Part shown: in pieces, positions 3,405 to 37,793 of the stretch
How positions within the stretch are numbered: position 1 is the first letter of the stretch
How the letters are laid out: each line of letters opens with the position of its first letter
IMG/VR virus record: IMGVR_UViG_3300028584_000490
Coordinates: 1-37,793 of that record
Direction: 5' to 3' (one strand)
Source of the DNA: a virus
DNA length: 37,793 nucleotides
Notes under the pieces: generated by a model
Database searches by the model: none
What the model was told of the DNA's origin: nothing
What the model saw: only the letters and a program-made list of their open reading frames with translations
Position numbers and translations under genes: made by a program

Positions 3405-3585
3405 CGGATGTTTTGGCTGTGAGCCACAAGTGATCAAGTGCGTCACGCCACGCGTAGAAAAGCCCATCGTGAGCAATAAGCTCTATGAGGATAGTTTTCA
3501 GGGTGCGAAGCAGTGCGCTATGAATTACTATGCTATGAAGAAGTATGCGGAACTGTTGGAAGAAGCGAATGGGGTTTGTCGTTAA
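3352..3585 (+). CDS. o-spanin (Rz1-like outer-membrane lipoprotein), overlapping the i-spanin by 53 nt
   Basis: Signal peptide MRMIVMTLLLSSIVLSISG followed by Cys (lipobox I-S-G-C). It is a small protein and shows the classic overlapped spanin arrangement. Confidence 0.75.
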   Translation: MRMIVMTLLLSSIVLSISGCFGCEPQVIKCVTPRVEKPIVSNKLYEDSFQGAKQCAMNYYAMKKYAELLEEANGVCR

Positions 3586-9800: not shown

Positions 9801-12800
9801 ACACCGTATCAAACGATCAAAGCCATTTATAACGCTCTCGATGTTGCGGGGTTTGCTCCCAAAACTGCATTAGAGCCAGCGGTGGGAAGCGGGAATTTTG
9901 TCGGGTTTCGTCCTGATCTCGCGTGGACGACTATCGACATCGATAAAACCAATCACGAGGTTGTCAATGCGCTGTACCCAAAAGCCAATAACTATCATAA
10001 CGGGTTTGAAGAGTTTAAGGGCAAAGGGTTTGATCTCATCATCTCCAATGTACCGTTTCTCGAAGAGCGCGGCGCGGGACTGCTCAAAGATCGTAAAGAC
10101 ATTAAGATGCTGCACGATTACTATTTTGCAGCGGCTATGGATAAGGTCAATGATAATGGGATCGTGGCGTTTGTCACGTCCAAGGGGACTATGGATAAGT
10201 CCGATGGTGCTATTCGTAAAGAGGTAGTGAGTCGGGGCGATATTATCGGAGCGTATCGTTTGCCTAGTGGTACGTTTTCTAAAAATGCGCATACCGATGT
10301 TGTCACCGATGTGATCTTCATCCAAAAACGTCCGGAGGGTGTGGAGCCTAGAGAAGAGCGTGCGCGTGACAATGAGGCGTTTGTGTCCTCTACCAAAACA
10401 GCTGATGATATATACATGAATACCTATTTTCAAAACCATACGTCCAATATCCTGGGCGATGTTAAAGCGGGGATCGATAAAGCCTATGGCCGTCCCGCGT
10501 ATGAGATCACGGGTACACCGGATTACAGCCGCATGAAGATCGACTATGCAGCGTATGGGAAAGAGAACCAAAAAGATGCAGCCAATGAGACACAGACTAT
10601 CCCTACAAACAGCAAAGAGTTTAAACAGTATGCCCAAGATAACGCGATTGAGTACACCAGCCATAAAGGTAGTGGGATCGTTATCGATGGTAGCAATGTT
10701 TTAGCGCAGCGTGAAGTGGAGTTTTCGGACATCGATCAAAAGGCGTACTATTATGAGCCATTAACGGACAAGGGGTTGTCCGATAAGATCCTAGCCCTGG
10801 ATAAGATCGTAGCAGCGGGTGAGGCTAATAACCTCGAAGAGGGGACAAAGCTCATCGATGCCTACAAAGCAGCGTTTAAAACCCACCCTAAGAAAGATAA
10901 AGCCCTGGGCAAAGCATTGCGCGAAGCGGGGGAAGATCAGAAGGTGTATGAGTATGGTAGTTTGTTTAATGATAAGTTTATACCTAGTGATATATTCCGT
11001 GAGCAGACACGCTATACCGGAAGCGGTAAAGCAGATATAAGCGAATCATCCCCACTCAAAGAACGATTATTTTACTCCGAGAACAACGAGGGTAAGCTCA
11101 ATATCAGAACCTCAAAGCTCCTGGATATGGATGAGTTCGGGGATATGCTCAAAGATGATAACTATGCCTATATTGGAGAGTTTAGCGTACAAAACAAGAT
11201 CCTCTATTACAGCGGCAATATCTATGATAAGATCGATGAGATTACTAAGATCCGGGATCAAAATTTAGGGGTTAAAAAATACGATGATGCAATCAGTGAG
11301 AAGCTCGATCTTCAACTCAAAGCACTCGAAGCCATACTGCCTGAACCCAAGAAGGTGGATGAGATCGAGTTTAAGGGAATAGAGAAGTGGATCAGCGATG
11401 CGGGGATCGAGATCCCGTTTAAGATGGTCAAGAAAACAGAGAAGCTACGCGACAATGGCGGGACTAAGACAACAGAGGAATGGCAAAGCGGATACGGTAA
11501 TATTTTTGATAATTACCTAAACGGCAAGCAGCTTATCTCAGCAAAACAAGATGAGTCAATGGCCTCGTTTAAAAACCGTTTGCGCGAAGCACAGCAAGAA
11601 GTGGCAACGGTACAAGACAAGTATCGTGCCTGGCTGTCAAGCAAGGGGCATACTGAGGCGTTTGAGAAAGCCTATAACAAACGCTTTAACGGATACGTGC
11701 AGCCGGACTATCTCGCAGCCTCGTACCTGATCCAGGACACACTCGATGCGCTGCCAAAAGAACTCACACTGCGCAGCAATCAGATCCAATGGATCATGCA
11801 AGCATATTATGAGGGTAAGGGGATCAATGCGCATGATGTTGGGGGCGGTAAGACGTTGGCTGGGATCGTGTTGGCAAAAGTCCTCAAAGATAAAGGGGCT
11901 GCTACAAAGCCGATCTTTGTTGTGCCGTCCAAGGTTATCAAGAATTGGGTTAAAGAGATCAAGCGTGCCGTACCGGATGCGAAGATCGTGGATTTGGGGA
12001 GTCTCTCAAAAGATAAGCGCGAATCGATGCTGCACGATTTGGCAAACACCAATGCCGATTATGTGCTGATTTCAAAAGAGGGTTTCCAGGCGCTCAAACT
12101 GCCGCTGCAAAAAGAGATCGATTATGCAACGCAGCTGTTACGAGAGAATTTGCAAAACGATAACCTAACCGGACGTGCTGAACAAGTAGCCAATGAGAAA
12201 GTAGAGCGCTATTTGGCGGTACTAAGAACCGATAATAAAAACAAATCGATCACGATTGACAAGCTGGGGATCGATGCCGTGTTCGCCGATGAAGCACGCA
12301 GCTATAAAAATATTGGGGTTAGCAGTGATCTTGTCGGTAATAAGCTGGGTAAAGCGTTTAGCATGAAAGAGAACGAGAAAACTAAGACCGTAAGTATCGA
12401 CAGTGCTATGGCGTATGATTTTCGTTTTAAAACCCGCTACATCGCAGAGCGTAACAATGGGCGTAATGTATTCTTACTCGATGCAACACCTACACCAAAC
12501 AAGCCTATCGAGATCTTCACGATGCTCAAACACCTGGACAATAATATATTCGATGAGTATGGGATCACTACGGATCGTGATTTTGCTAATATGTTTTTTG
12601 AGTTTGGGATTAAGCCTACTAAGACGGGGGGCATGGATAAAGGGTTGATCGCGCTTAAAAATGCGTTTGGACTCAAAGGGATCATGAATCGCTACATCAA
12701 TCGAATCAGCATGGCAGATTTTGCCAGCCAAAAGATCATCGATCTACCCGAAGAGAAAGTGATTAACCACTACCTCGATCAAACCGATGAGGGCGATATA

Positions 12801-14111
12801 GTGTTTACGGATATTGCTAAACGTATGCAAGAAGCAAAAGCCGATAAAGAGAAACGTAAAGAGATACCAGGGATATTTAGCAACGGGATCACGGCAAGTG
12901 TCGATCCAAGATTGTATCAGCGTATGGGGATCACAGACATACTTGATCCTACACCGGATAATCATAAGATCGCCAAGGTGATCGATCTCGTTCTATCCAA
13001 ACGCGGCATCGATGCGAAGTCGGGGCAGATCATATTCCTAGACAGTGCCGGGCATACGGCAAGTGATACGAATGTAAAGGTAGATAAGACAACGGGAGTC
13101 GAGACTGTTTATGCTGCTACCCTGGAACAAAACCTACACCGTGATATGAAAGATAAGCTTATCGCTAGTGGCAAATATAAAGCTAATGAGATTGCTATCC
13201 TAAGTGGCCAGGAGATCACTGATCCAAGAACGGGTAAAGAGACGGGAGCTACGGGCGATAAAGCGCAGCAACTCAAGCAAGATATTGTTGATGCGTATGA
13301 TGCCGGGCAAGTTAAGGTAATCATCGGAACAACTAAGAGTGCGGGTGAGGGGATGAATATCCAAAAGTTTACGACGGATATTTACCACATCGATCTACCC
13401 TGGACGATTGCCGAAGTAATCCAGCGCAATGGGCGTGGGGTACGGTTTGGTAATCAAAACGCAAGTGTAAACCTACACTACTTTTTCCAGGCGGGGACGT
13501 TTGACTCTCTCATGTATAAAACAGTCATGAATAAAAAAGGATGGAATGAGGCGCTATGGGATACCAAAGTAGAGGATCGTATGGAAGTCGTGGACGAGGG
13601 TGGATCGATGCCAAGTCCAGCGGAGATCATGTTAGCTATGGAAAAAGATCCTATTAAGAGGAGACAATTAGAACTAGAGATCGAATACCAGCGCCTCAGT
13701 GATGAATATAACAATGTTACCGATGAAGTTAAAGCCATCGAGCGCAGAATATCAACCATAACAACAGAGCAGCGCGACGAGGGCAATAAGCAACGTGATC
13801 TCGAAGCACGTATGAAAGATCCAACGCCTACGCTAGAGCTGCGTGAGCTGCAAGAGAAGATGCACAAAGAGCCTAAGAAGTACAAAGCAAAGTTTGAGGA
13901 AGTCCAGGCGCGCGTTAAGAAGAGCCAAGAGGGTATGCACGCGCAACGTGTAGCTAAGATGGAGAATCTCAAGAAAGAAGAAGTGCGACGATACGAAGCA
14001 CTCAAAACAGCGAGAGAGAATCATACTAAAGTCGCGGGCGAACTAAGAGATTTTGAGGATAAGTACATGGATAACCGGGGTAATTTTATAGCTGAAGTGG
14101 AGTGTGCGTAA
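6831..14111 (+). CDS. Giant polyvalent protein (2426 aa): N-terminal glycine-zipper region, tandem small modules, acidic G/S/D disordered linker, N6-adenine DNA methyltransferase domain, SNF2/DEAD-type helicase domain, C-terminal coiled coil (P1 DarB-like architecture)
   Basis: Uninterrupted 7.3 kb ORF. MTase motif I EPAVGSGNFVG (nt ~9873) and motif IV DLIISNVPF (nt ~10044). Helicase motif I DVGGGKTLAG (nt ~11835), motif II FADEARSYKN (nt ~12288), motif III LLDATPTPN, motif V GTTKSAGEGMNIQ, and motif VI QRNGRGVRFGN (nt ~13422). Confidence 0.85.
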   Translation: MADVWSRLGIKPYEADPKKVKLTLEDAPKVEAKPQAQDTSRSIGQIILDTDAQFGQGAGSLVQTFGDLGQLATGNKNSLQSYGQEVKDFYGNLLSPQYKQEGKDVSAAIKAKDGEIAQAVEAIKQYATHPSQLSGAIVGSIPAMAAGGVPGKVLGLGAGALGIGATGVTRASIGGAAAGESVIQGGQTGGEVLRGDLNQAANSDWTPKYSQEEILDRARTAALGSAATTALTYAIPGSTTIEKALLGVENKVGSRAVNTAKGFAGEMGQEGIQGGTGQMSQNYAEDKPLTQGVGEVTATGALIGGIMGGGMGFANSTSSAPQAAPKKPSETINVEEEVKSEAKKQAYTWATQREGEVRQEAAQAKAHVNEMLNNGLDPKSVRATLDNLITPSAADVKLTQLLNEGTILPSNMTGMRIVPLIEDTIQASIDAPELARTNQELESVLKQAGMSKRLTQIITAAYAAKDPQILKDHIQETLDGNTHEFVDHAPIQEAIMQQVAQLDEQHAIQMEAIKQQEEEQKAIETLSNDSESVAVEPKQEEVIFKPAQGKRAVRGELFDLPFGYKGVIVKNQAGDAAELYEYSTGSRLSGYSAGTSWKLDESIAEARNKMERTGEEKLAQHFEEIKNDRGITNTEIVYAKAPTITKEKELVTIESFNRDGIAIEVSGTPIKLSNNINAIITKRDDGWHITESDVGAPLGGGKTRKEAIDAVNNSIQKIGIEKYSTLIEKKRKEYDIFRLPIEEVKQFFNGMDANEKIEFSKSWGSNTPEWWADKNWDDLRSDQHDALKSVYLGHNRNKSDTILDDTKTISKDTKTTLKGVKDEEVQPIRGNDGAGSEDTGSTTVRPDEASNPRGSDAARDGGIDGETKGASNVVGAVRSPKSDIGNSGGDDAVSQGTEPMERYAAPSSDDTNAAGVGIDTVVSSGGEQNLNLEGKDPIILTRGQRRDINYQAKAILEKGAPYSEADKEILRQYTGEGGLVSSKESLTQHYTPYQTIKAIYNALDVAGFAPKTALEPAVGSGNFVGFRPDLAWTTIDIDKTNHEVVNALYPKANNYHNGFEEFKGKGFDLIISNVPFLEERGAGLLKDRKDIKMLHDYYFAAAMDKVNDNGIVAFVTSKGTMDKSDGAIRKEVVSRGDIIGAYRLPSGTFSKNAHTDVVTDVIFIQKRPEGVEPREERARDNEAFVSSTKTADDIYMNTYFQNHTSNILGDVKAGIDKAYGRPAYEITGTPDYSRMKIDYAAYGKENQKDAANETQTIPTNSKEFKQYAQDNAIEYTSHKGSGIVIDGSNVLAQREVEFSDIDQKAYYYEPLTDKGLSDKILALDKIVAAGEANNLEEGTKLIDAYKAAFKTHPKKDKALGKALREAGEDQKVYEYGSLFNDKFIPSDIFREQTRYTGSGKADISESSPLKERLFYSENNEGKLNIRTSKLLDMDEFGDMLKDDNYAYIGEFSVQNKILYYSGNIYDKIDEITKIRDQNLGVKKYDDAISEKLDLQLKALEAILPEPKKVDEIEFKGIEKWISDAGIEIPFKMVKKTEKLRDNGGTKTTEEWQSGYGNIFDNYLNGKQLISAKQDESMASFKNRLREAQQEVATVQDKYRAWLSSKGHTEAFEKAYNKRFNGYVQPDYLAASYLIQDTLDALPKELTLRSNQIQWIMQAYYEGKGINAHDVGGGKTLAGIVLAKVLKDKGAATKPIFVVPSKVIKNWVKEIKRAVPDAKIVDLGSLSKDKRESMLHDLANTNADYVLISKEGFQALKLPLQKEIDYATQLLRENLQNDNLTGRAEQVANEKVERYLAVLRTDNKNKSITIDKLGIDAVFADEARSYKNIGVSSDLVGNKLGKAFSMKENEKTKTVSIDSAMAYDFRFKTRYIAERNNGRNVFLLDATPTPNKPIEIFTMLKHLDNNIFDEYGITTDRDFANMFFEFGIKPTKTGGMDKGLIALKNAFGLKGIMNRYINRISMADFASQKIIDLPEEKVINHYLDQTDEGDIVFTDIAKRMQEAKADKEKRKEIPGIFSNGITASVDPRLYQRMGITDILDPTPDNHKIAKVIDLVLSKRGIDAKSGQIIFLDSAGHTASDTNVKVDKTTGVETVYAATLEQNLHRDMKDKLIASGKYKANEIAILSGQEITDPRTGKETGATGDKAQQLKQDIVDAYDAGQVKVIIGTTKSAGEGMNIQKFTTDIYHIDLPWTIAEVIQRNGRGVRFGNQNASVNLHYFFQAGTFDSLMYKTVMNKKGWNEALWDTKVEDRMEVVDEGGSMPSPAEIMLAMEKDPIKRRQLELEIEYQRLSDEYNNVTDEVKAIERRISTITTEQRDEGNKQRDLEARMKDPTPTLELRELQEKMHKEPKKYKAKFEEVQARVKKSQEGMHAQRVAKMENLKKEEVRRYEALKTARENHTKVAGELRDFEDKYMDNRGNFIAEVECA

Positions 14112-17225: not shown

Positions 17226-17404
17226 GGTGTTTATCCTTTTTGTATATATTTAACTGATGACAGTATTATACAACTAACATTAAAACAAGCTGAAACAATA
17301 CTAAATTAACATCATTTTAGTGTCAAATTACAACTTTATAGTATTAATCAACACTTTTTTAGGGTTTTATGGTACTATTTTAGTATTCTTTTAGGAGGTT
17401 TGAT

Positions 17405-18043
17405 ATGGTTATTACAGTAGCTCATCAAAAAGGTGGTGTGGGGAAAAGTACGATCGCTAGTAATTTGGCGGTCGAGTATTTCAAAACGTATGGGGATCGT
17501 CTCACGGTTGTGGATTTGGATACGCAGCGATCATTGACGTATTTTAATAATATACGAAAATACAATGGAATCCAAGAGCTGCCGATCGTCCAGGTGAAGA
17601 GCGCGGATGAGCTTACGGCAGTGATTAAAGCAAACAAGGGATTGATCCTCATCGATGCTGGAGGGTTTGATAGTGATGTGAATCGTGTGGCGATGCTGCA
17701 CGCGGATCGGATCATCACTCCGGTGAGCGATAGCAGCTTTGAGCTGGGTGGGTTGATGATGTTTCGCGGGATCTTGCGAGAGCTTCGTGCTGCTCGTCCT
17801 GATCTTGTCGCTACTGTGCTGCTCAATCGGGTGCATCAGTTCGCGGGGAAGAGTTTGGAGGAGATCTTCGACTTTGCTCGCAGCAATGAGGAGTTTGGTA
17901 TTTTTGAGACGATCCTACGAGATCGAGGGGAGTACAAACGTGCGACGGAAAATGGAAAGAGCGTTGTAGAGCTTGTGAGAGACGGCAAAGCAGCGCAAGA
18001 GATCACTAATTTGATGGAGGAGATGGATAATGAACAAGTTTAA
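17405..18043 (+). CDS. parA: ParA-family partition ATPase (small, type Ib-like, 212 aa)
   Basis: Deviant Walker A HQKGGVGKSTIASNLA. AGGAGG at 17393-17398. It is followed by an overlapping small RHH gene. Confidence 0.85.
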   Translation: MVITVAHQKGGVGKSTIASNLAVEYFKTYGDRLTVVDLDTQRSLTYFNNIRKYNGIQELPIVQVKSADELTAVIKANKGLILIDAGGFDSDVNRVAMLHADRIITPVSDSSFELGGLMMFRGILRELRAARPDLVATVLLNRVHQFAGKSLEEIFDFARSNEEFGIFETILRDRGEYKRATENGKSVVELVRDGKAAQEITNLMEEMDNEQV

Positions 18044-18248
18044 TGAAGCGGCGCTGGATGCAGCGGTCAATGGTGCGGCGATGAAAGTTGCTGTTGAGGC
18101 GGTAGAGATCGAGGTGGATAAACAATCTCCGGTGTACGACATACCAAAGCAATGGAAGAAGCTGATCAAGAAACATCGCCATGCTACGTTTAGTGCGTAT
18201 GCTCGTGCAGCGATTGAAGAGAAGATGCAGCGGGATGGGTTGATATGA
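18030..18248 (+). CDS. Ribbon-helix-helix centromere-binding protein candidate (ParG-like, 72 aa)
   Basis: Overlaps the parA 3' end. The C-terminal segment SPVYDIPKQWKKLIKKHRHATFSAYARAAIEEKMQRDG fits a beta-alpha-alpha RHH layout after a flexible N-tail. Confidence 0.6.
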   Translation: MNKFNEAALDAAVNGAAMKVAVEAVEIEVDKQSPVYDIPKQWKKLIKKHRHATFSAYARAAIEEKMQRDGLI

Positions 18249-18433: not shown

Positions 18434-18458
18434 CCTCTTTCCGTTTCCTAGTCATATA

Positions 18459-18494
18459 AGCCCGGTGCATCGTTATGGTGTAGCCGGGCTTTTT
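18459..18494 (+). terminator. Candidate rho-independent terminator of the par operon
   Basis: AGCCCGG (18459-18465) pairs with CCGGGCT (18484-18490) and is followed by TTTTT. The loop is large (18 nt), so confidence is moderate. Confidence 0.5.
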
Positions 18495-18495
18495 G

Positions 18496-19266
18496 CGTTC
18501 TACCTACCTGGTGCCGCTGCAAGCGCTAACGCGGGGGCGGGTTTCGGGATCTTGTTCTCTTGTCTTGCTGCTTTAAGCGCCAACACGACAAAGCCAAGAG
18601 CGCTCAATATGAAGATTGATTAACGGTTGGGGTTTGGAGGGGGGTTTGGTTGGGAAATCTGTCCCGTCCCGCTTGATTTTTTAAGGTTGGGCGTTTTGGC
18701 GTGTAACCTTAAGCGATTGGGTGCTGATGCAGCAGATCGGTAGCACCATGTTGTCCATGTGGGAAAAATGGTATTGAAAGTGTATAAAAGTGGAAAGTGT
18801 ATAAATCTATGAACTATTGCAAAAACAGCTCCCTATTATAGGGGATCGGCGCTGCTGTGATCTGTATGGGTTAAGCGTTCGTTTGTTTTGTACATATTTG
18901 GGCTTATTTATGGGGAAAATGTGGGGTAGTGTTGGTGGAGGGTGGTTTTGTGGGGGAAAAGTCCAAAAAACAAGAGGGGGGTATGGGCATATTGGCTGGA
19001 CGGGCTGGGAAATTTTGGGATGAAATTGTACGGGGGGTGCTTGACCCCTCGGTCGCGCCACGGTACTACTACGGTCGGAGTATTTTTGCGTATCATTTTT
19101 GCATTTTTGCCCCGCCAAAATTGCGCAAGATTGTTACGTTTAGAAAACGTCACCTTTTTCTACTAGGCGCTCTTGGCTCTTTCGAGCGAAGCGGGAACAA
19201 TTCATCGTGTTGGGGCTTGAATGGTCGGTGTGGTATCCCCGCGGTTGGTATGGTGCGTGTTGGGGC
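18496..19266. other. ~770 bp G-rich (+ strand) non-coding island between two convergent operons
   Basis: No ORF here has an SD or a plausible composition. There are many G4-7 runs (ggggtttggaggggggtttggttggg; ggtggagggtggttttgtggggg; agaggggggtatggg; gtacggggggtgc). Hairpin TTAAGGTT(18681-18688)/AACCTTAA(18705-18712). 13-nt direct repeats GAAAGTGTATAAA (18776, 18793) and CGTGTTGGGGCTT (19206, 19256). Confidence 0.6.
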
Positions 19267-19473
19267 TTAGTAGATATAGTAAAACTGTGATGAACTTCCG
19301 ATCCATCCAATGCTTTTGAAAAAGTAGAATGATCCAAAAAATGAAATAGCCATAGAAATTGCCAGGATATATTCTGATAATTTTGAGCATTTTTTTTCGT
19401 GGCACTCTTGTCCAACATAATAGAGCGATCCTGGTACAGCCATTATGATTATAATTGATAAGATTCCAAGCAT
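19267..19473 (-). CDS. Small two-TM membrane protein (68 aa), distal gene of the repressor operon
   Basis: Predicted TM helices LGILSIIIIMAVPGSLYYV and ILAISMAISFFGSFYFF. The start lies 1 nt after the upstream stop. Confidence 0.55.
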   Translation of the reverse strand: MLGILSIIIIMAVPGSLYYVGQECHEKKCSKLSEYILAISMAISFFGSFYFFKSIGWIGSSSQFYYIY

Positions 19474-21063: not shown

Positions 21064-21112
21064 GTCTCCTGGCTACCACCGCGCGATCGTTTGCACTGCC
21101 AAAAGGGAATTT

Positions 21113-21350
21113 TGTTGCGGCTGTTGCGGCATTTGTTGCGGCACTGTTGCGGCTTGACCTCCCTATTTTGGGCAAGTGTAGCTATGTTGCGGCTGTTGCG
21201 GAACTTTCCGTGTATATATGTGCGCATAGGGGCGCGCAGGCGCGGTAGGTACATATCGTGCCGCAACATAGCAACACATAGCTACACCTCCCTTGTGTAC
21301 GCTGTTGCTACCCTATCTTTTATTTTTCTTTAAGTCGCAACATAGCAACA
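21113..21350. repeat. Iteron-like array: TGTTGCGGC x6 direct (21113, 21122, 21134, 21145, 21185, 21194) plus inverted copies (GCCGCAACA 21260; GCAACA at 21271, 21337, 21345), followed by an AT-rich tract
   Basis: Read directly. Copies 1-4 are spaced 9-12 nt apart. The direct and inverted sets flank a TATATATG / GC-rich palindromic centre (ggggcgcgcaggcgcgg). An A/T-rich stretch at 21320-21400 follows. Confidence 0.8.
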
Positions 21351-27508: not shown

Positions 27509-28044
27509 TGGAAAAAAATCAAAAAATAGCACTTGATCTATGGTTGGGTACGGCTACGCTATTTAATGATTTTAAGCCATGCACGGATCGTGATTTGTGT
27601 ATTGAGCTGGGGCATCTCGATATAGAGGTCACGAAGTCTACTATCGCTAGGTGGAGAGAGAAGTTTGATTTTGCGGGACACTTGCAAAACAAGATCAGCG
27701 CGTCTATGGTAACGGATGCCACTACACGAGAACTGATCGCAAAATCCGCAAGTGATGCCGTGATCGAAAAGACAATCGTGGACATCGAGCGCAATGGTAA
27801 GTTATCCGGATTGGCATACTCAATCCTGGAAGCCAAAGCGGAGATGATCATGCTCAAATACGAAACGACAAAGATCGTCAGCGATAACGATGCGAAGATC
27901 GCTGTACAGATTGCACAACTCACTACGGGGCGAGAAGATAGGATGTTGGATCGTGCAGCGATGCTCGATACTGCCAAGATGATCAGCAAAGAGGATATAT
28001 TGGCGGGGTTTGATTCACTTGCGGTGGATGTGGAGATCGAATGA
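27508..28044 (+). CDS. Small terminase subunit candidate (178 aa)
   Basis: The call rests mainly on its position upstream of TerL. It has an N-terminal HTH-like segment (DIEVTKSTIARWREKF) and a helical middle. ATG 27508 overlaps the upstream stop (TAATG). Confidence 0.45.
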   Translation: MEKNQKIALDLWLGTATLFNDFKPCTDRDLCIELGHLDIEVTKSTIARWREKFDFAGHLQNKISASMVTDATTRELIAKSASDAVIEKTIVDIERNGKLSGLAYSILEAKAEMIMLKYETTKIVSDNDAKIAVQIAQLTTGREDRMLDRAAMLDTAKMISKEDILAGFDSLAVDVEIE

Positions 28045-28826
28045 AATACATCTCCATGCTATCGGGTGGTCAGGATAGTACCGCAATGACTCTAAAACTT
28101 TTAGAACTTGGTGAGCCAGTTGATTACATCGTATTTTCTGATACTGGCTTAGAGTTTGACGATATGTATGAATATATTGATAAGCTTGATTTATTTTTTC
28201 AGCGTAAATATGGAAAAAAGATTATTCGCTTACATCCAAAAAATGATTTTGAGTTTTGGACTTTTGGGGAAACAACAAAAGGCGAAAATATTGGGATGAT
28301 CCGAGGCACTCCAAGAGTTTCATTGCCGTGTTTTTGGAGAAGAGATGCCAAAGAATATCCACTAACTAGATGGCTCAAAGAAAATAATATTACAAAATTC
28401 ATAAAATATGTAGGCTACACGGCAAGCGAAACAAGCCGTGCAAATGGAATGGAGGAGTTTAATTACAAAGCCCCATTAATAGAATGGAACTGGACTGAAA
28501 GCGATGTACAAAAATATCTCAAAGATAATATGATGGAAAATAAACTCTATCAGCATTTTTCTCGTACTGGGTGTGCGGTATGTCCAAAACAAACTATCAA
28601 CGATAAGTATATGATATGGAAACGCTATAAAAAAGAGTGGGATTATATGGTGGACGTTGAAACAAGATTAAAGTTAGCAAGAAAAGCCAAGGGTGAGAAG
28701 CATAGCCCAGCGTGGCATGATTTATATTTTACAGATCAGCTTGAAAAAATGTTTATAAAAAAAGATCGGACACCGACTTTTGAATTTGAATTTGAAGCAG
28801 TACAAGACTGCTTTTGCAAGATATAG
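28041..28826 (+). CDS. PAPS-reductase/DndC-like PP-loop ATPase family protein (261 aa)
   Basis: N-terminal PP-loop SMLSGGQDSTAM. C-terminal SRTGCAVCPKQ (R-x-GC-xx-C) and terminal CFC. ATGA overlap with the upstream gene. The gene is AT-rich and GATC-poor relative to its neighbours. Confidence 0.7.
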   Translation: MKYISMLSGGQDSTAMTLKLLELGEPVDYIVFSDTGLEFDDMYEYIDKLDLFFQRKYGKKIIRLHPKNDFEFWTFGETTKGENIGMIRGTPRVSLPCFWRRDAKEYPLTRWLKENNITKFIKYVGYTASETSRANGMEEFNYKAPLIEWNWTESDVQKYLKDNMMENKLYQHFSRTGCAVCPKQTINDKYMIWKRYKKEWDYMVDVETRLKLARKAKGEKHSPAWHDLYFTDQLEKMFIKKDRTPTFEFEFEAVQDCFCKI

Positions 28827-28835
28827 GGAAATCGA

Positions 28836-30362
28836 ATGAGCGCATTACTAAAACCGCTGGATCAGCTCAAATTTGCTAAGTTTGTTACCCCTAACATATT
28901 TGAGAACGCTACTCCTAAACTGCATATCACGCTTTTGGATTTTCTAAACAAAGGGAGTCGATTTTCAGCAGTGATCCTCTCGCGTGGGTTTGGTAAATCT
29001 ACGCTGCTCAATAAGATCCATATCCTAAGCCGTATTTTCTTCAAGCATGAAAAATACACGATGATCGTGTCAGAGAATGAGGGTAAAGCTAAATCGTTTT
29101 TGCGTGACATTAAACGTATGATCGATGATGCTGCACTGCTGCGCCTGGATATACGGCGTGGTGCAATATGGAATGAGAAGATGATCGAGATCGTGGTCAA
29201 TGCCTCCTCTCCTGAGTTTGCGCACTTGCCTCCTGAAAAGCGTGGGTATCGTTGTGCAGTGGTAGCGTATGGAGCCGGTGAAGATCCGCGGGGGTATTTG
29301 TACGACAATAGCCGTCCTACATTTATTATATCCGACGATATTGAGTCGCGTGAGTTGGTAAAGAGCAAAGTGCAGCGTGAGAAGTTGGCAGAGTGGTTTT
29401 TCCAGGATCTCGTCCCCGCATTGCATCCGGAGGGTGAAATCCTCATTATCGGTACGATCATGCACGCAGAGCAGCTGATCAGTCGTATACGTGATAATCC
29501 TCAATGGGATACGATCACGCTTGGTTGTTATGATGAGAATGGTGAGTCCAGGTGGAAGAGTCGTTTTAGTAAAGAGGATCTCGAAGCGATACGGCATGGA
29601 TTTGAGGCGCAAGGGCTGTTTAATGCGTTTCCTAATGAATATCTGTGTATTCCGCAAAACGAAGCCAAGCAGCTATTCCAGCGTGACGATTATCGCTACT
29701 TTGAGCGCATACGATACAGCGATAAGGTGACGATCAAGAAGTTCAAAGATGCTAAGGGTGAGTATGATATTAAGATCTATGAACCTATTGCTATTGTGCT
29801 AAGTGATGGCAGTGAGATACCGTACATCGATTTGAAGATCTACACAACTATGGATTTGGCAAGTGATGGGAAAGATAGGACGTGTATTTTTACGGTGGGG
29901 TATGATACAGCTGGGAATGAATACAATTTGGATATTAGCAGCGGGCATTGGAATCCGTTTGAAAAGTCGATCCAGGCATTGCGGGTACAAGCACAGTTTC
30001 ACCCTATCCGGTTTGGGATCGAGAAAGCGGGTGCGCAAAACGATTTTTTCTACACCATCGATGTGGCGCAAAAAGAGTATGGTATCCGTATCCCCGTGGA
30101 TCCTCTCTCGCATGGCGGGGTGAATAAGAATATACGGATCTCGAATTTGCAGCCGAGTTATTTGGCTCGTAAGATCTATCATAACCGCAGTGACAAAAAC
30201 AATGCGATGTATGAAGCGCAGCTGGGGAATTTTAATATCGACATCCAAAGCAGTGTGGATGATATGATCGATGCCAGGGCGTATCAGCTGCAATATGTGG
30301 TCAATCGAAGTTTTGAAAATATCTACGTAGATGATAAATACAATGTAGGCGCATGGGAATAA
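28836..30362 (+). CDS. terL: Terminase large subunit
   Basis: Walker A VILSRGFGKSTL. Walker B-like TFIISDDIES. C-terminal nuclease-like region with acidic residues (TTMDLASDGKDRT). Size 508 aa. Confidence 0.85.
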   Translation: MSALLKPLDQLKFAKFVTPNIFENATPKLHITLLDFLNKGSRFSAVILSRGFGKSTLLNKIHILSRIFFKHEKYTMIVSENEGKAKSFLRDIKRMIDDAALLRLDIRRGAIWNEKMIEIVVNASSPEFAHLPPEKRGYRCAVVAYGAGEDPRGYLYDNSRPTFIISDDIESRELVKSKVQREKLAEWFFQDLVPALHPEGEILIIGTIMHAEQLISRIRDNPQWDTITLGCYDENGESRWKSRFSKEDLEAIRHGFEAQGLFNAFPNEYLCIPQNEAKQLFQRDDYRYFERIRYSDKVTIKKFKDAKGEYDIKIYEPIAIVLSDGSEIPYIDLKIYTTMDLASDGKDRTCIFTVGYDTAGNEYNLDISSGHWNPFEKSIQALRVQAQFHPIRFGIEKAGAQNDFFYTIDVAQKEYGIRIPVDPLSHGGVNKNIRISNLQPSYLARKIYHNRSDKNNAMYEAQLGNFNIDIQSSVDDMIDARAYQLQYVVNRSFENIYVDDKYNVGAWE

Positions 30363-30465
30363 TACTTATATAGTATTATTTTAGTGTTAAATAGTATTAA
30401 AACAATAGTAAACTTTAAGTTTTGTATGATTATAATGCCTTTTAGAATTATACAAGGGGTTTACG

Positions 30466-31059
30466 ATGGTGGTAGGGTATGTACGGGTATCAACGGTAAA
30501 ACAAGATGCTGAAAATCAAATGGGTGAGATTTCAAGGTGGTGTGCGTATAGTGGCATGAGTGTAGAAAAAATCGTCAGTGAGACAATCAGCAGCCGAAAA
30601 AAAGAGCGTGAGATCTTTGAGTTGGTGGAGAGTATGGGGGAGGGTGATGTCCTCATCGTCACTGAACTCTCACGGATTGCCCGTAGTGTCAAAGAGCTAT
30701 CGGCGATCACAGAAACGTTGGTGGAGAAAAAAGTTCGGATCGTTTTTCTCAAAGAGGGGCTGGACATCCATGATAATAATCCAGCGGGTAAAATGATGTT
30801 ATCCATATTGGGAAGTATCGCAGAGTTTGAGCGTGATATGATCTCTATTCGTACCAAAGAGGCGATGCAAACCAAGCGTGATAATGGTATCGTCGTGGGA
30901 CGGATCAAGGGATCAAAAAATAAAGAACACAAATTGCTAGGCAAAGAGAAACAGATCCAAGGGTATCTCGATAAAGGGATGAGCAAAACGGATATAATCA
31001 AGGTGCTTGGGGTGAGCCGTGGGACTTTTTATAGTTTTATAGGCGAGATGGGATTATAA
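30466..31059 (+). CDS. Small serine recombinase (resolvase/invertase family, 197 aa)
   Basis: N-terminal VGYVRVSTVKQDAENQ (catalytic Ser), SRIARS, and a C-terminal HTH (SKTDIIKVLGVSRGTFYSF). SD AAGGGG upstream. Confidence 0.85.
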   Translation: MVVGYVRVSTVKQDAENQMGEISRWCAYSGMSVEKIVSETISSRKKEREIFELVESMGEGDVLIVTELSRIARSVKELSAITETLVEKKVRIVFLKEGLDIHDNNPAGKMMLSILGSIAEFERDMISIRTKEAMQTKRDNGIVVGRIKGSKNKEHKLLGKEKQIQGYLDKGMSKTDIIKVLGVSRGTFYSFIGEMGL

Positions 31060-31814
31060 TGTGTGCAATAGGTGGTGCTATGAGTTCAAAAATATATAAA
31101 CATAATCCGGTCATACGCGGTCATATGACGGATGGGAGCAATCCGGCGATTAAAGAGGAAAACCAAAAGGTTATCATGCTCGATGCGTTTGAGATGGATT
31201 TATTCAATGCTATTTATTATTTTTCCCAACAAACACTTTGGCATGATGATCCTGATATGTTGGAGTCTGAATCGGTGGTGATACTGTACTCTAATGTCAA
31301 GAAGTTTTTGGGGATACGCAGTAACGATTTTAAGCCTATGGTAATCAATGCTCTCATCAAGCTGCTCACTACGGAGATCGTATTTAACAGCTACACGTTT
31401 GAGAGCGGTAAAACCCTCAAAAATATGCACGTTCCAATACTGTCTATGTTTGCCGAGGAGGTCAATCTCAATGCTGATGCGTTTGAAGTGATCATCAATC
31501 CTATCATGATTAGAGCAATGGCGCAGCATCATAATAATTTTACTATCGTGGATATGAAAAAAACACGCCGTCTCTCTAGCAAATATGCAAAGCGTTTATA
31601 TGAGTGGTTGTCGAGTATGAAGCAGATCAATAAAAAGATCCGTGTGAATCTCGAAATGATGAATAAGTTGTTGGGGATGGAAGAGAGCGATTTTAAGCGT
31701 GCCAATAAGATCATAAAAAATTCGTATCCTCAACTGTTTGAGCTGTTGAATTTCACGTATGAGTATGATCGCGCAACTAAAGAGATCGTGTTTTTGTTCG
31801 CTACTAAAGGGTGA
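31059..31814 (+). CDS. Rep_3-like iteron-binding plasmid replication initiator (251 aa)
   Basis: Winged-helix-type block RRLSSKYAKRLYEWLSSMKQINKKIRVNLEMMNKLLGMEE...YPQLFELLNFTYEYDRATKEIVFLF. The iteron array follows immediately. TAATG coupling to the recombinase gene. Confidence 0.7.
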   Translation: MCAIGGAMSSKIYKHNPVIRGHMTDGSNPAIKEENQKVIMLDAFEMDLFNAIYYFSQQTLWHDDPDMLESESVVILYSNVKKFLGIRSNDFKPMVINALIKLLTTEIVFNSYTFESGKTLKNMHVPILSMFAEEVNLNADAFEVIINPIMIRAMAQHHNNFTIVDMKKTRRLSSKYAKRLYEWLSSMKQINKKIRVNLEMMNKLLGMEESDFKRANKIIKNSYPQLFELLNFTYEYDRATKEIVFLFATKG

Positions 31815-31822
31815 AATATCTT

Positions 31823-31946
31823 CCCGTAAATGGCTCCTTTTTTCTCCCGTAAACGGCTCCTTTTTTTACCGTAAACGGTACTTTGTTTCCCGTAAACGGC
31901 TCCAAACTTTCCCGTAAACGGTACTTTTTTTACCGTAAACGGTACT
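31823..31946 (+). repeat. Six direct iterons (core CCGTAAACGG; 15-mers at 31823, 31846, 31868, 31889, 31911, 31932), candidate plasmid oriV
   Basis: Read directly. The spacing of 21-23 bp is about two helical turns. Two alternating variants occur (CCCGTAAACGGCTCC and ACCGTAAACGGTACT). T-rich spacers separate them, and an A/T-rich region follows (31950-32080). Confidence 0.9.
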
Positions 31947-32083
31947 TTTTAATTTTATTCACACCCTATACGCTCCCATAAACACGCTGTTTTGTAAAGT
32001 TTTTCACATTCCCTAAATACTTCTAAGTTCTTATATAAATAAAATATAAATGGCTTTCACTGGTATTTTTTAGTATGTGAATA

Positions 32084-32102
32084 GTTAAAACCCATCCTAT
32101 AC
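32084..32102 (+). promoter_or_regulatory. Late-block motif copy c (GTTAAAACCCATCCTATAC)
   Basis: Identical to 6780-6798. It ends 39 nt before the portal ATG 32142. Confidence 0.55.
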
Positions 32103-32141
32103 GTAGCGTACTCTTTGGAAAATAAAACCCAAGGGTACATT

Positions 32142-33767
32142 ATGGCACTGTCTAAAAAAGATCAAGCGGATCTTACTCTCATCAACAATGCGTTTGCACG
32201 TCAAGAAAAATATCACGGTCAATGGAAAATGTTTGACGATTATTTCAGGGGGCGTTTTAGTGAGGATCAATGGAAGCGACTCAAAAAAACGAAGCGCTCC
32301 AAACTCTTTATCCCGGTGATCCGTAACATCATCAATATCACGAAGTCAATTTTTACCACGAGCTTTTTTAGCTCCGGTTGTCCTATCGAGGCTATGTATA
32401 TCGGGGATAGTGATCGTGAGAAAGCTAACGTGATCACGACGCTTGCAAAGTATCACTACGATAAGGATAAGCCGTACAAAGAGTTGGCGCGTGCTTTTTG
32501 GTCGGCTCTCACTATGCGTATGGGGATTGTAATCAGCTATTGGGATACGGATCGTATCAGAACTCGGGAAATATTCATCAAAGACATTGCGTTTGACTAT
32601 GAGGCTACGGGGATCGATGATATTGAATATCTGTCATATCGGCTGTGGGAGAGCGGCAATGCGATCTTAACCAAGATCAAAAGCGGGTTTTATAAGATCA
32701 GTGAGAAAGATTTTTTTGGTAATGACTCATCGACGTATTTTTCCAAACGGTATGAAGTCAAAGAGCTGATCCGTCGTGATGGTAAAAAATGGTCATGCCG
32801 CACGTTTTGTGATGGGAAGCTACTGCGTAAAGCCTCGTTTGAACGTAACCCGTTTCAGTATGGCTATGCCATCGATGAGTACAAGCACCACGATAAGGAT
32901 CGCGCACGAGATCAGATCATGGTGTATGGCGGATCATTGGTCGCGACACTAAAGGAGATTCAAGATGAGATCAATATTAAGAGAAATCAAAAAAACGACA
33001 TCCAGGAAGAGAAGATTAATCCAACATGGTTTATTGGGGATACAGTACAGGTTAATCCTTTTGACCTCAAAAAAGGGGCGGGAACTGCTATCAAAGTGAC
33101 GGGGGCGATGAGTCCCTCAAATATGATGATGCGTCCTACTCCAAGCCAGGGAGATTTGGATAATGATCTGGCAATGCTCACCAAACAAGATCTCGAAGAT
33201 GCAAGCGGTATCAATGGGATCATGCGCGGGGCTACGAGTACAAGTGATCGCAGAAGTGCTGCATCGCTATCTATCGTCAATGCAAACAGCTCCCCGCGTA
33301 TCGAGGATATGATTATGCTCATATCCGATACGCTGTTTCATCATTGGGCAAAAAATTTCGTCTATCTCGCAATCAAACATTCCAGCGATGATCTGATCCA
33401 CCGTCTCACAGAGCGCAATGATTTTCCATTGGGGAGATTTGGAGCTAGGGATGCCGGGGATTATGACATCCGTATTAATTTTGGAAGTACGATCAATAAA
33501 GAGGCTAAGGTTAATGATCTACTCTCGATCACACAAATGCTGCTGCAAAATCCTAAAGTCAATCCAGCGATCATCGAGGGGATGATCAAAGAGATCGTAA
33601 ACATGAAGTTGGGAGAAAATACCAATCTCACCGAACTCTTTACCCAGGCGATGATGCAAGAAGATCCAATGGAAAACCCTAATGAAATGGTGGAAGCACC
33701 GCAAGAAGCGATGATCGATCCGCAAGAAGAGCGCGAAAAGATGCTAATGGCAGCGGGAAGTTTGTAA
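32142..33767 (+). CDS. Portal protein candidate (541 aa)
   Basis: The size and position (first gene of the head module, upstream of scaffold and capsid) support the call, as does the acidic C-terminus. I prefer ATG 32142 (MALSKKDQ...) to the track's TTG 32115. No motif-level confirmation. Confidence 0.6.
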   Translation: MALSKKDQADLTLINNAFARQEKYHGQWKMFDDYFRGRFSEDQWKRLKKTKRSKLFIPVIRNIINITKSIFTTSFFSSGCPIEAMYIGDSDREKANVITTLAKYHYDKDKPYKELARAFWSALTMRMGIVISYWDTDRIRTREIFIKDIAFDYEATGIDDIEYLSYRLWESGNAILTKIKSGFYKISEKDFFGNDSSTYFSKRYEVKELIRRDGKKWSCRTFCDGKLLRKASFERNPFQYGYAIDEYKHHDKDRARDQIMVYGGSLVATLKEIQDEINIKRNQKNDIQEEKINPTWFIGDTVQVNPFDLKKGAGTAIKVTGAMSPSNMMMRPTPSQGDLDNDLAMLTKQDLEDASGINGIMRGATSTSDRRSAASLSIVNANSSPRIEDMIMLISDTLFHHWAKNFVYLAIKHSSDDLIHRLTERNDFPLGRFGARDAGDYDIRINFGSTINKEAKVNDLLSITQMLLQNPKVNPAIIEGMIKEIVNMKLGENTNLTELFTQAMMQEDPMENPNEMVEAPQEAMIDPQEEREKMLMAAGSL

Positions 33768-36259: not shown

Positions 36260-37793
36260 GTTTATTGATATTTTACGAAATATAAGGGATGTTTTATACC
36301 CCGAAATGGTTGCGATGTATAACACTATTGTTGGTTCAAATCCGCTTGGAATGGATGGCAAAGTCGATAAAGTAAGTGGAAAGCAGCTCTCTACTGAGGA
36401 CTACACAGCTTTAGAGAAAAACAAGCTCTCATTAATAGAGGAACAAGCCAATCATTATACGCATCCATCCCAACACCCCGCATCTATTATTGATGGGTCA
36501 ATGTATCCGTCTCAATTTGTAAAGACAGACGCTCTTGGAAATACCGGGTTTGGATATGTGGGATGGGGTGAGATTGTAGGGAAGCCATCTGATTCAGATA
36601 ATGTAGAGCTTATAACCAACAAAGGTGTTCCAAACGGGTATGCCCCTCTTGATGCAACGGGAAAAATAAATCCATCTTTTATCAGCTCATTAAATACTGT
36701 TGATGTTTTTACCCCGGCTGATGAAGCTTCTATGCTTTTGCTAACAGCGGGGCTTGGGGATATTGCATACAGACAAGATAACACAAACAGCTATATGCTT
36801 GTCGCCAATCCAGCCTCTACGTTGGCAAATTGGAAGCAACTCAACCTCGTTGGGGTTTCAAGTTTCAACGGAGCTATTGGCGCGGTTAATGTAGATACGT
36901 CTAGCATACCGGAGGGTACAAACCAATATTTCACCAATGAGCGTGTGGATGATCGTATGGCTGCTCTCGTAAAGGCGGGTACAAATGTATCAATAGTTTA
37001 TGATGATGTATCAAATACTCTTACAATCAGCGCTGATGATACATCAGTATTATGGAGTCAGCTGCAAAATGTTCCTACGACGTTTGCCCCATCTGCGCAT
37101 AATCATGTTGTTGCGGATCTAAGTGATGCTGATACATTGGTTAGAAAAGACTCGGCTACTGGAGCTGCTTATATGCCATCAGGTACAACAGCACAACGTC
37201 CAGTAAGCCCAGTGAATGGGTATATGAGATATAACTCAGAACTGCTGGCTATGGAAGCATATACAAATGGAGCATGGGGTTCAGTAGCAGATACTAATGG
37301 TGTTGTATTGACAACAACTAATCAGGATGTAGCTGGAATAAAAACCTTTAGCTCATCCCCAGTCATCCCCAATGCTACACTAGGTACTCACCCACTTGCT
37401 GCAAAGCAATCAGGAGGTAGACGCAACTACCTAATCAATGGTAACTTTGACTCATGGCAATATGGTACAAGTCAGAGTATTTCAGGATATGGTAGTGATG
37501 ATAGGTGGATTAACGTAAATGTAGGATCAACTAAAACACATATCCAAGTAGCTTGCACAGATACTGAAAGAGCTTTATTTAATGCTAGTAAGTTTTCACG
37601 AATGGTAGTATCTAGCGTTGCTGGCGCAAGTAATTATGTCCAAAAAGTTCAGGCAATAGAGGATGTAACAAAACTTGCTGGTAAAACAGTAACATTGTCA
37701 TTTTGGGCTAAAGCTGATAGTAATAAAAATATAGCTATTGCTTTTAGACAATTTTTTGGGAGTGGAGGCACTCCATCAGTACAAGTTGCTGGC
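36252..37793 (+). CDS. Tail fibre protein, 5' part (open at window end; continues at base 1 to 759; joined product about 687 aa)
   Basis: There is no stop from GTG 36252 to the window end. AGGAG lies at 36241-36245, 6 nt upstream, and the start overlaps the previous stop in GTGGATAA. The frame is the same as 1..759 once the 237-nt overlap is removed. Tail-fibre-type motifs in the translation: HYTHPSQHPASIIDG, NQYFTNERVDDRMAALVKAG, GTTAQRPVSPVNGYMRYNSELLAMEAYTNGAWGSV. It is absent from the ORF track because it has no stop inside the window. Confidence 0.85.
   Translation, partial: MDKFIDILRNIRDVLYPEMVAMYNTIVGSNPLGMDGKVDKVSGKQLSTEDYTALEKNKLSLIEEQANHYTHPSQHPASIIDGSMYPSQFVKTDALGNTGFGYVGWGEIVGKPSDSDNVELITNKGVPNGYAPLDATGKINPSFISSLNTVDVFTPADEASMLLLTAGLGDIAYRQDNTNSYMLVANPASTLANWKQLNLVGVSSFNGAIGAVNVDTSSIPEGTNQYFTNERVDDRMAALVKAGTNVSIVYDDVSNTLTISADDTSVLWSQLQNVPTTFAPSAHNHVVADLSDADTLVRKDSATGAAYMPSGTTAQRPVSPVNGYMRYNSELLAMEAYTNGAWGSVADTNGVVLTTTNQDVAGIKTFSSSPVIPNATLGTHPLAAKQSGGRRNYLINGNFDSWQYGTSQSISGYGSDDRWINVNVGSTKTHIQVACTDTERALFNASKFSRMVVSSVAGASNYVQKVQAIEDVTKLAGKTVTLSFWAKADSNKNIAIAFRQFFGSGGTPSVQVAG
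37557..37793. repeat. Terminal direct repeat, right copy (identical to 1-237)
   Basis: Same 237 nt as the window start. Confidence 0.95.

Follow-up and report, generated by a model that had tools for sequence, protein, structure and literature searches.

We describe here a compact replicon-like segment in the genome of a virus known from metagenomic data, IMG/VR record IMGVR_UViG_3300028584_000490. Positions 1 to 37,793 of this record were analysed, and this whole stretch of 37,793 nucleotides is referred to as the window. Between the gene for the large terminase subunit (TerL) and the portal gene lies a segment of DNA (30363-32141, referred to as the cassette) that is likely the plasmid-state replicon of a phage persisting as a plasmid in a Sulfuricurvum-like host. 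The upstream border is TerL (28836-30362, plus strand; phrog_38, terminase large subunit, E 9.5e-61), the downstream border is a portal gene (32142-33767, plus strand; PF23899, SU10_portal, E 2.7e-16), whose reading frame is open from a TTG at 32115 and whose likely start is the in-frame ATG at 32142. The two genes are 1.78 kb apart, and the gap contains two open reading frames (ORFs; 30466-31059 and 31059-31814). A sequence-only reading of the window had placed a serine recombinase and a Rep_3-like initiator here, and family searches recover both at these positions (PF00239 and PF01051); the other sequence features that it listed are likewise found where it had placed them. That TerL and portal are usually adjacent, as had also been assumed, is what we see in many of the relatives compared. 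Gene identities, the fold of the initiator, repeats, conservation, co-variation, circularity and the state of the TerL-portal gap (the slot) in relatives were computed. The known part of this system is its kind, a phage-plasmid with a Rep_3 theta replicon; what is unusual is that the replicon lies between TerL and portal, that initiator families are exchanged there and that motifs link it to the partition (par) operon.

Initiator and origin

The initiator gene rep (31059-31814, plus strand) is a 251-aa ORF with a probable start at the ATG at 31080, which gives a protein of 244 aa. Rep matches PF01051 (Rep3_N, the WH1 domain) with E 5e-11 and 43.6 bits, above the gathering cutoff of 22.4, and the same domain is present in 13/13 Rep homologues. 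Among NCBIfam models it matches RepM (E 2e-10) and RepE (E 1e-7), both under the family cutoffs, and among PHROG families phrog_2172 (E 2.5e-12) and phrog_4402, 'replication initiation protein' (E 7.8e-7). The C-terminal ~40% of the protein aligns by tblastn with Acinetobacter RepM at 25-33% identity, a PDB search with a profile built from 14 homologues gives RepE (E 0.003), and tblastn of Rep against the phage collection gave no match. Two tandem winged-helix domains, WH1 and WH2, are present in the AlphaFold model of Rep (pLDDT 75.7). A Foldseek search of the PDB with this model returned initiators in all of the top 46 matches (mini-F RepE, R6K Pi, pPS10 RepA-WH1 and MSBI1.176-WH1; probability 0.99-1.00), and the full-length RepE and Pi structures (ranks 1-43) matched over 212-245 aligned columns with probability 1.00. 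The corresponding TM-scores are 0.3-0.4, probably owing to a different domain orientation. On these matches Rep clearly belongs, if distantly, to the winged-helix initiators.

The 13 Rep homologues are 57-96% identical to Rep, and one of them is named from a Sulfuricurvum metagenome-assembled genome (MAG). Rep is intact, and 79 alignment columns stay invariant over this whole range of identity. In most homologues the first residue corresponds to Met8 of the 251-aa ORF (ATG 31080, with AGGTGG in front). The sequence-only reading had described rep as translationally coupled to the recombinase gene by a TAATG overlap. The overlap exists in the DNA, however the coupling is doubtful, because most homologues start at Met8 and because a 43-aa lipoprotein-like ORF intervenes between the recombinase gene and rep in L177, a relative with 96% DNA identity.

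Downstream of rep follow six iterons (31821-31950, plus strand) with the consensus TTCCCGTAAACGGyWCTTTTT and a phase of 21-23 bp, for which Tandem Repeats Finder (TRF) gives a period of 21, 6.0 copies and a score of 153. The iteron core, CCGTAAA(C/T)GG, starts at 31824, 31847, 31869, 31890, 31912 and 31933 (spacings 23, 22, 21, 22 and 21 bp), reads CCGTAAACGG in 5/6 copies and CCGTAAATGG in the first one, and is itself a short palindrome (CCGT-AA-ACGG). No further copies of the 10-mer occur elsewhere in the window. Five bases past the last iteron lies an exact DnaA box, TTATTCACA (31955-31963, plus strand), the sole perfect copy in the window. Two boxes with one mismatch each (32000-32008, plus strand; 32076-32084, minus strand) flank an A+T-rich candidate unwinding element (32015-32075) that is 80% A+T (genome mean 57%) and belongs to the top ~1% of 40-nt windows. 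Both the repeats and the A/T-rich tract had been noted in the sequence-only reading. As terminators the iterons were discarded, since they form just two weak 5-bp stems, with a folding z-score of -2.2 that is not informative.

Relatives with Rep_3 carry 3-7 repeats of ~21-22-bp phase between rep and portal. The iteron sequence varies along with Rep, with at least five different iterons among Reps that are 23-96% identical: CCCGTAAACGG in the window and in L177, L173 and L001, CCCGTAAATGGTAC in L005, CATTTCCCCCATTTGTCCC in L174, TACTCACTCAAATATTC in L024 and AAAATAGTCCCTCAAAAG in L028. The order of rep, iterons, exact TTATTCACA and the most A+T-rich 40-mer is found in 8/8 Rep_3 loci (the window and 7 relatives), where a perfect DnaA 9-mer would be expected ~0.0025 times per intergenic region of that size. 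A relative with an initiator of another family, RepL (L030), has no exact DnaA box TTATTCACA at its locus. Variable iterons next to an invariant host DnaA box are the pattern to be expected of an initiator-specific, DnaA-assisted theta origin, and they are hard to explain for a passenger remnant. Thus, the Pfam match, the RepE/Pi-like predicted fold, the iterons that co-vary with Rep and the conserved DnaA box and A+T tract together support the assignment of the cassette to the Rep_3/iteron replicons, predicted to be of theta type, as the sequence-only reading had proposed.

Promoter, partition link and recombinase

The spacer between TerL and the recombinase gene (rec) is 103 bp long, 79% A+T and contains a TATAAT box (30431-30436) that is conserved in relatives. 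Its upstream part is occupied by operator-like repeats (TAGTATT/TAGTGTT/TAGTAAA; 30361-30412, plus strand) with a phase of ~11 bp and a palindrome, AATACT-N5-AGTATT. A 32-bp stretch is found only at 30361-30392 and at 17297-17328, upstream of parA, with 0 such occurrences expected by chance. Besides this stretch the parA upstream region (17240-17404, plus strand) contains TAGTATT repeats and a 34-bp inverted repeat (17240-17273). The ParA ATPase is encoded at 17405-18043 (plus strand; PF01656/PF13614; NF041546, ParA_partition, E 2.8e-33), and a 72-aa ORF (18030-18248, plus strand) that overlaps the parA end is, by position only, a candidate for a centromere-binding protein; it has no family match. 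The cassette had been viewed as a self-contained mini-replicon, a view that does not hold, since ParA lies 13 kb away and the 32-bp operator-like stretch is common to the cassette and the parA promoter.

The same kind of link is found in relatives. In L024 ATATATCA stands in front of both parA and rep, in L028 an identical 18-mer, AATATTGTAACGATATTT, does so, and contig 36762 has TAACATTA/TAACGTTA in front of both. The operator-like motifs of par and rep differ between elements, yet they match within each of them (the window; L024, L028, L176/L004). These shared motifs suggest, at the level of sequence, a single regulator for replication and partition. The recombinase was rejected as the binder, because L024 and L028 share the par/rep motifs and show no recombinase in the 14-20 kb examined. 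Rep was rejected because the iterons differ in sequence from the motifs, and CI is probably not the binder either, as no copy of the motifs occurs in the cI-cro region. Presumably a product of the partition operon binds the shared motifs and co-regulates replication and partition, and the 72-aa ORF is the obvious candidate. A comparable arrangement is that of omega of pSM19035, which has operators before copS, delta and omega, and ParG of TP228 is a further shared regulator. Short direct and inverted repeats upstream of partition and replication operons are common to these systems and the one described here, a likeness that is by analogy only.

The first gene of the operon encodes a small serine recombinase of the resolvase/invertase type (197 aa; 30466-31059, plus strand; PF00239, Resolvase, E 2.2e-36; phrog_125, E 6e-51). 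Aligned with gamma-delta resolvase and Gin, the enzyme retains the nucleophile S10 and the conserved arginines R8, R68 and R71. Ser takes the place of the conserved acidic D67 of the (L)DRLGR motif in the window and in 7/7 phage relatives aligned, where the motif reads ELSR(I/L/V/M)(A/G)R. The C-terminal region aligns with the helix-turn-helix (HTH) of resolvases, and the HTH_7 model scores 19.3 bits, below its cutoff of 23.8. Gin (E 3e-14) and gamma-delta resolvase (E 7e-14) match about equally well in the PDB, and the protein is, judging from sequence, not assignable to either resolvases or invertases.

A 34-bp inverted repeat, TTGTATGATT-N14-AATTATACAA (30422-30455, plus strand), spans the TATAAT of the rec-rep promoter, and the same geometry is found in L173, L001, L004 and L174. 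Because its inner arm base co-varies with the C-terminal helix of the recombinase (TGTAT..ATACA, TGTAA..TTACA and TGTAG..CTACA, read by eye), this repeat is the best candidate for the recombinase binding site, used for autoregulation and/or crossover. The TAGTATT-type repeats upstream are probably not recombinase subsites, since they are common to the parA region and also present in relatives whose examined DNA shows no recombinase. The second 34-bp TTGTAT..ATACAA inverted repeat, at 17240-17273, is the only other paired copy in the window; it overlaps a minus-strand TATAAT and lies ahead of a leftward cluster of small ORFs, which include one for a hydrophobic protein of 92 aa and, read by eye, one of 37 aa. 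One protein may control both this promoter and the rec-rep promoter. As recombination partners the sites at 17240 and 30422 were dismissed: their central dinucleotides differ (GA vs CC), and the 17240 copy is not clearly conserved.

A multimer-resolution function had been ascribed to the cassette. A serine recombinase is present, but its role as a resolvase would follow from inference only: Gin and gamma-delta resolvase score alike, the match to the Mpi family is below its cutoff, and next to the gene a three-subsite res was not recognised, with the single 34-bp candidate site found instead. The place of the gene at the operon head favours dimer resolution together with autoregulation as its job, and we consider the chances of this to be about evenly balanced. 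Alternatively, the enzyme could be an Mpi/Gin-like DNA invertase that flips a promoter or a gene segment, its adjacency to Rep being incidental, which seems rather unlikely. The best curated (NCBIfam) match is indeed the Mpi master DNA invertase, over the full length with 160 bits and E 4.5e-47, however this lies far under the cutoff of 272. The best PHROG is 'DNA invertase', Gin scores marginally above gamma-delta resolvase, and two relatives have the recombinase without Rep in the slot. An invertase would act on inverted sites, and a perfect 16-nt inverted repeat (30040-30055 / 30560-30575, 504 nt apart; ~0.01 such pairs expected by chance) flanks the rec promoter region, with the second arm in the 5' part of the recombinase gene. 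The other arm falls within the conserved NDFFYT codons of TerL. Five relatives lack the repeat, so that it is probably a coincidence rather than a functional site. Genome-wide and local inverted-repeat searches found no conserved inverted site pair flanking any segment, no invertible tail-fibre segment was found in the window, and throughout the clade the gene remains the first of the replicon operon, all of which speaks against an invertase.

The slot between TerL and portal in relatives

A scan of viral contigs with the single TerL protein returned no relative and an alignment-based scan was needed; with the TerL alignment 164 loci were gathered, on which the proteins of the window were mapped. 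Every source-named one among the 148 TerL homologues comes from Campylobacterota. In many Campylobacter-type loci the slot is empty, with 70-230 bp between the two genes. Other Campylobacter relatives (L048, L056, L057 and L065) have a defence-like pair of an AAA_21 ATPase and a RloB-like protein at this place, and L051 and L054 have three unknown ORFs. The recombinase occurs alone in L094 and on the P0024 contig, Rep_3 occurs alone, with five 21-bp iterons, in L023 and L024, and recombinase plus Rep_3 is the state of the window's clade. In L030 (6057-7612) the recombinase is combined with an initiator of the RepL family (PF05732, E 1e-10), and a 21-bp palindromic repeat is present in 2.8 copies. 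The modules of L028 are rearranged, yet Rep and iterons still stand directly before portal. The contigs with Rep homologues, several of them 29-37 kb long, show TerL, resolvase, Rep_3, a ~320-bp gap and portal, some with a small ORF between rec and rep, and one Rep-bearing relative is a separate contig of a Sulfuricurvum MAG. The TerL-portal junction is therefore a cargo slot in this phage family, a natural gap between transcription units.

How the portal gene may be transcribed downstream of such cargo is suggested by a promoter-like late motif, GTTAAAACCCATCCTATAC (32084-32102, plus strand), ~40 nt before the portal ATG. This 19-mer occurs exactly at 32084 and 6780 and with three mismatches at 3581, where 0.01 matches are expected by chance, and the motif before portal is conserved in relatives. 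The sequence-only reading had seen in it a fresh copy that restored late transcription after an insertion. The copy is real, but its interpretation as a restoration is not borne out: relatives with an empty slot have a spacer of at least 140 bp before portal with a similar element, GGAAAACCATAGATTAGAC. Because cargo-free relatives have such an element upstream of portal, it seems that the portal operon had its own promoter all along and that the cargo lies upstream of it.

A recent capture of the replicon, as had been envisaged, is contradicted by its distribution. The same cassette is fixed across a divergent clade in which TerL falls to ~50% and Rep to ~57% identity, and because of this it is an old, clade-wide occupant of the slot and not a recent insertion. 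In a TerL tree (rough neighbour-joining, no bootstrap) the genomes with recombinase and Rep_3 form one clade, with one recombinase-only and one Rep-only genome nested nearby, and cargo is present or absent among nearly identical Campylobacter TerLs.

Two chromosomal relatives have no replicon in the slot: in L010 TerL and portal are adjacent, in L054 the three unknown ORFs lie between them. The TerL flanks of these two carry flagellar genes (Campylobacter concisus) and, on another contig, polysulfide reductase, RuvB and other host genes. In both records (L010:1-9995; L054:1-9995) TerL abuts host genes, which makes it the border of the integrated element, and the two sites in the chromosome differ. 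Rep at the slot is missing in these chromosomally integrated relatives and is carried by 26-37-kb contigs with ParA. It is tempting, though doubtful at present, to regard the junction as an exchangeable 'lifestyle slot', in which Rep_3 or RepL replicons (with or without the serine recombinase) would be swapped and rewired by acquiring the resident par operator repeats, so that the slot content would decide between plasmid state and integration and the relatives would form a series from phage to phage-plasmid.

Phage-plasmid character and known systems

Bases 1-237 of the window are repeated at 37557-37793, and because of this 237-bp terminal overlap of the contig ends the window is a circular genome of ~37.6 kb. 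Genes for packaging, head, tail, lysis and a lysogeny switch are present, among them an SU10-type major capsid protein, the SU10-type portal, an M15 peptidase and, for the switch, a CI/S24 repressor with a divergent Cro-like HTH protein. The early operon encodes a DnaG zinc-ribbon protein and a D5-type primase-helicase, so the genome has two replication systems, this one and Rep_3 with its iterons between late genes. Upstream of the primase operon, at 21100-21350, direct arrays of TGTTGCGGC and inverted arrays of GCCGCAACATAGCAAC mark a region that, from its sequence features, may be a lytic origin or an early operator. No integrase domain came up when the larger ORFs were scanned against Pfam, the sole recombinase being the 197-aa serine enzyme. 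Because the genome is circular and encodes ParA, a CI-type repressor and a D5-type primase-helicase without a recognisable integrase, its gene content is best read as that of a phage-plasmid, in line with the character that the sequence-only reading had given it. The window is then a temperate phage genome that is most likely maintained as a plasmid in a Sulfuricurvum-like host, and the element likely represents a new lineage of phage-plasmid, in a temperate phage of sulfur-oxidising Campylobacterota.

In the model that we infer from these data, which covers the firing of the origin and its dependence on DnaA, the control of copy number, the resolution of dimers, the common regulator and the existence outside the chromosome, a sigma-70-like TATAAT promoter at ~30431 would drive the rec-rep operon, and Rep, with its two winged-helix domains, would bind the six iterons. 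Rep and host DnaA at the TTATTCACA box would open the A+T tract at 32015-32075, leading to theta replication, and the copy number would be set by iteron saturation and handcuffing, as in F, P1 oriR, pSC101 and R6K. Most likely the 34-bp inverted repeat over the rec-rep promoter would be bound by the serine recombinase, which would autoregulate the operon and probably resolve replicon dimers. Because the upstream repeats of the operon are common to the parA promoter, replication and partition would probably both be controlled by a single DNA-binding protein, perhaps the small product of the ORF behind parA. For lytic replication the phage would turn to its other system, the D5-type primase-helicase with the repeats at ~21100-21350.

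A different division of labour would make Rep and iterons the lytic or early origin, like lambda O and ori-lambda, and leave the plasmid state, if any, to the D5-type primase-helicase, acting in the manner of P4 alpha. Primase-helicases of the D5/P4-alpha type can maintain plasmid replicons, as in satellite P4, Rep-like proteins occur in phages (phrog_4402, phrog_2172), and the D5 enzyme has repeat arrays of its own. This is nevertheless quite unlikely. Late genes, not the early operon, surround the cassette, which has its own sigma-70-like TATAAT promoter; its operator-like motifs are common with the parA promoter and have no copy in the cI-cro region. A conserved host DnaA box beside iterons is a hallmark of plasmid theta origins, and integrated relatives lack Rep in the slot, whereas the 26-37-kb ParA contigs have it. 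Very improbable is the idea that the cassette is a passenger or decaying remnant, for example of a recombined small plasmid, without a role in the life cycle: the slot does tolerate unrelated cargo (AAA_21 with RloB, unknown ORFs), but Rep is intact with its 79 invariant columns from 96% to 57% identity, its iterons co-vary with it, the DnaA box is exact in 8/8 loci, the cassette is fixed in the whole clade and shared motifs wire it to the par promoter.

Several points weigh against a plasmid-state replicon with a resolvase. All loci are metagenomic, and both replication of the fragment and an extrachromosomal prophage are predictions; the absence of an integrase is concluded solely from the Pfam scans of larger ORFs. 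By analogy, the D5 primase-helicase alone could support plasmid replication, with Rep serving another stage. The 72-aa candidate for the protein that would bind the shared motifs matches no family. The resolvase role is based on position and analogy, the best curated family being one of invertases; the D67 replacement affects the catalytic motif, there is one candidate binding site and no multi-subsite res, and two relatives have the recombinase without Rep in the slot, so that its job is perhaps not tied to Rep.

With the reading as a plasmid-state replicon, the functionally closest system is the P1 plasmid prophage. P1 has repA with the incC/incA iterons, oriR with DnaA boxes, parA-parB-parS, Cre-lox dimer resolution and a lytic oriL/repL. 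The likeness extends to a temperate phage kept as a plasmid, an initiator with iterons and DnaA boxes, ParA partition, a recombinase that is a candidate for dimer resolution and a second, lytic replicon. There is, in contrast, no sequence relationship; the replicon lies between TerL and portal, 13 kb from par, instead of sharing a single block with it; Cre is a tyrosine recombinase, whereas the enzyme of the window is of the small serine type, and the host here belongs to the Campylobacterota. With Rep_3 plasmids (mini-F RepE, R6K Pi, pPS10 RepA and Acinetobacter RepM) the cassette has in common PF01051, the two-winged-helix fold, ~22-bp-phased iterons by rep and a DnaA box with an A+T element. 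Identity to the initiators of these plasmids is under ~30% where aligned, and 13-20% to RepE and Pi in structural alignments. Further differences are that the replicon described here is embedded in a phage, that a serine recombinase precedes rep in the same operon and that the iteron core is palindromic.

Plasmid resolvases (Tn3/gamma-delta TnpR, RK2 ParA, Sin, beta of pSM19035) and the invertases Mpi and Gin resemble the recombinase in the catalytic Ser, a putative C-terminal HTH and the small size, and the palindromic site overlapping the recombinase's own promoter recalls res-mediated autoregulation. Unlike these enzymes, the one described here has D67 changed to Ser clade-wide, and the three-subsite res is not recognised. 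The slot itself is similar to moron and defence hotspots in that variable accessory genes occupy a fixed intergenic site and are present or absent among near-identical relatives. In contrast to such hotspots, in part of the family the cargo is the maintenance replicon itself (Rep_3 or RepL), and slot content goes along with lifestyle, plasmid or integrated.

At the DNA level neither the TerL-to-portal region, searched in the phage collection, nor the cassette, searched in the plasmid collection, gave a match. TerL is at most 25% identical to that of any isolated phage, and neither isolated phages nor catalogued plasmids include a close relative. Literature searches found no description of a phage-plasmid for Sulfuricurvum or other Campylobacterota. 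A growing view holds that phage-plasmids link phages with plasmids, and the known groups come mostly from enterobacteria, vibrios and Firmicutes. The comparative series at one site (empty, defence cargo, recombinase only, Rep_3, RepL) offers a view of how plasmid maintenance is gained and lost, and the operator motifs common to replicon and par operon suggest a route by which a captured replicon enters the resident control circuit. With less than 1.8 kb, this compact and clearly delimited replicon is also a candidate origin for shuttle vectors, coming as it does from hosts for which genetic tools are scarce.

Further observations concern other parts of the genome. Rfam and tRNA scans of the window gave no match to known RNAs. 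A PAPS-reductase-like gene (28041-28826) directly before TerL is missing in L177, the strain variant with 96% identity, which has the 43-aa ORF between rec and rep instead; such differences are small indels among strains. Between the par operon and the CI operon lies a gene-free region of ~800 nt (18434-19270, with related repeats up to 19680) that is kept in relatives (L175:11150-11990; L176:11385-12172) and contains blocks better conserved than the neighbouring proteins. It contains a long-range inverted repeat (18572-18603 / 19167-19221), in which a base change in L176 repairs a mismatch. The region has no Rfam match and may be a large non-coding RNA or a cis-acting site. In the structural module an ORF of 2426 aa (6831-14111), preceded by an exact copy of the late motif, encodes SNF2 and helicase C domains. 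In the corresponding place relatives encode proteins of 1700-1769 aa, of which the 1700-aa one (L175) carries PBECR2/LPD1 domains. We take the 2426-aa protein to resemble polyvalent, possibly virion-delivered anti-restriction proteins such as P1 DarB.

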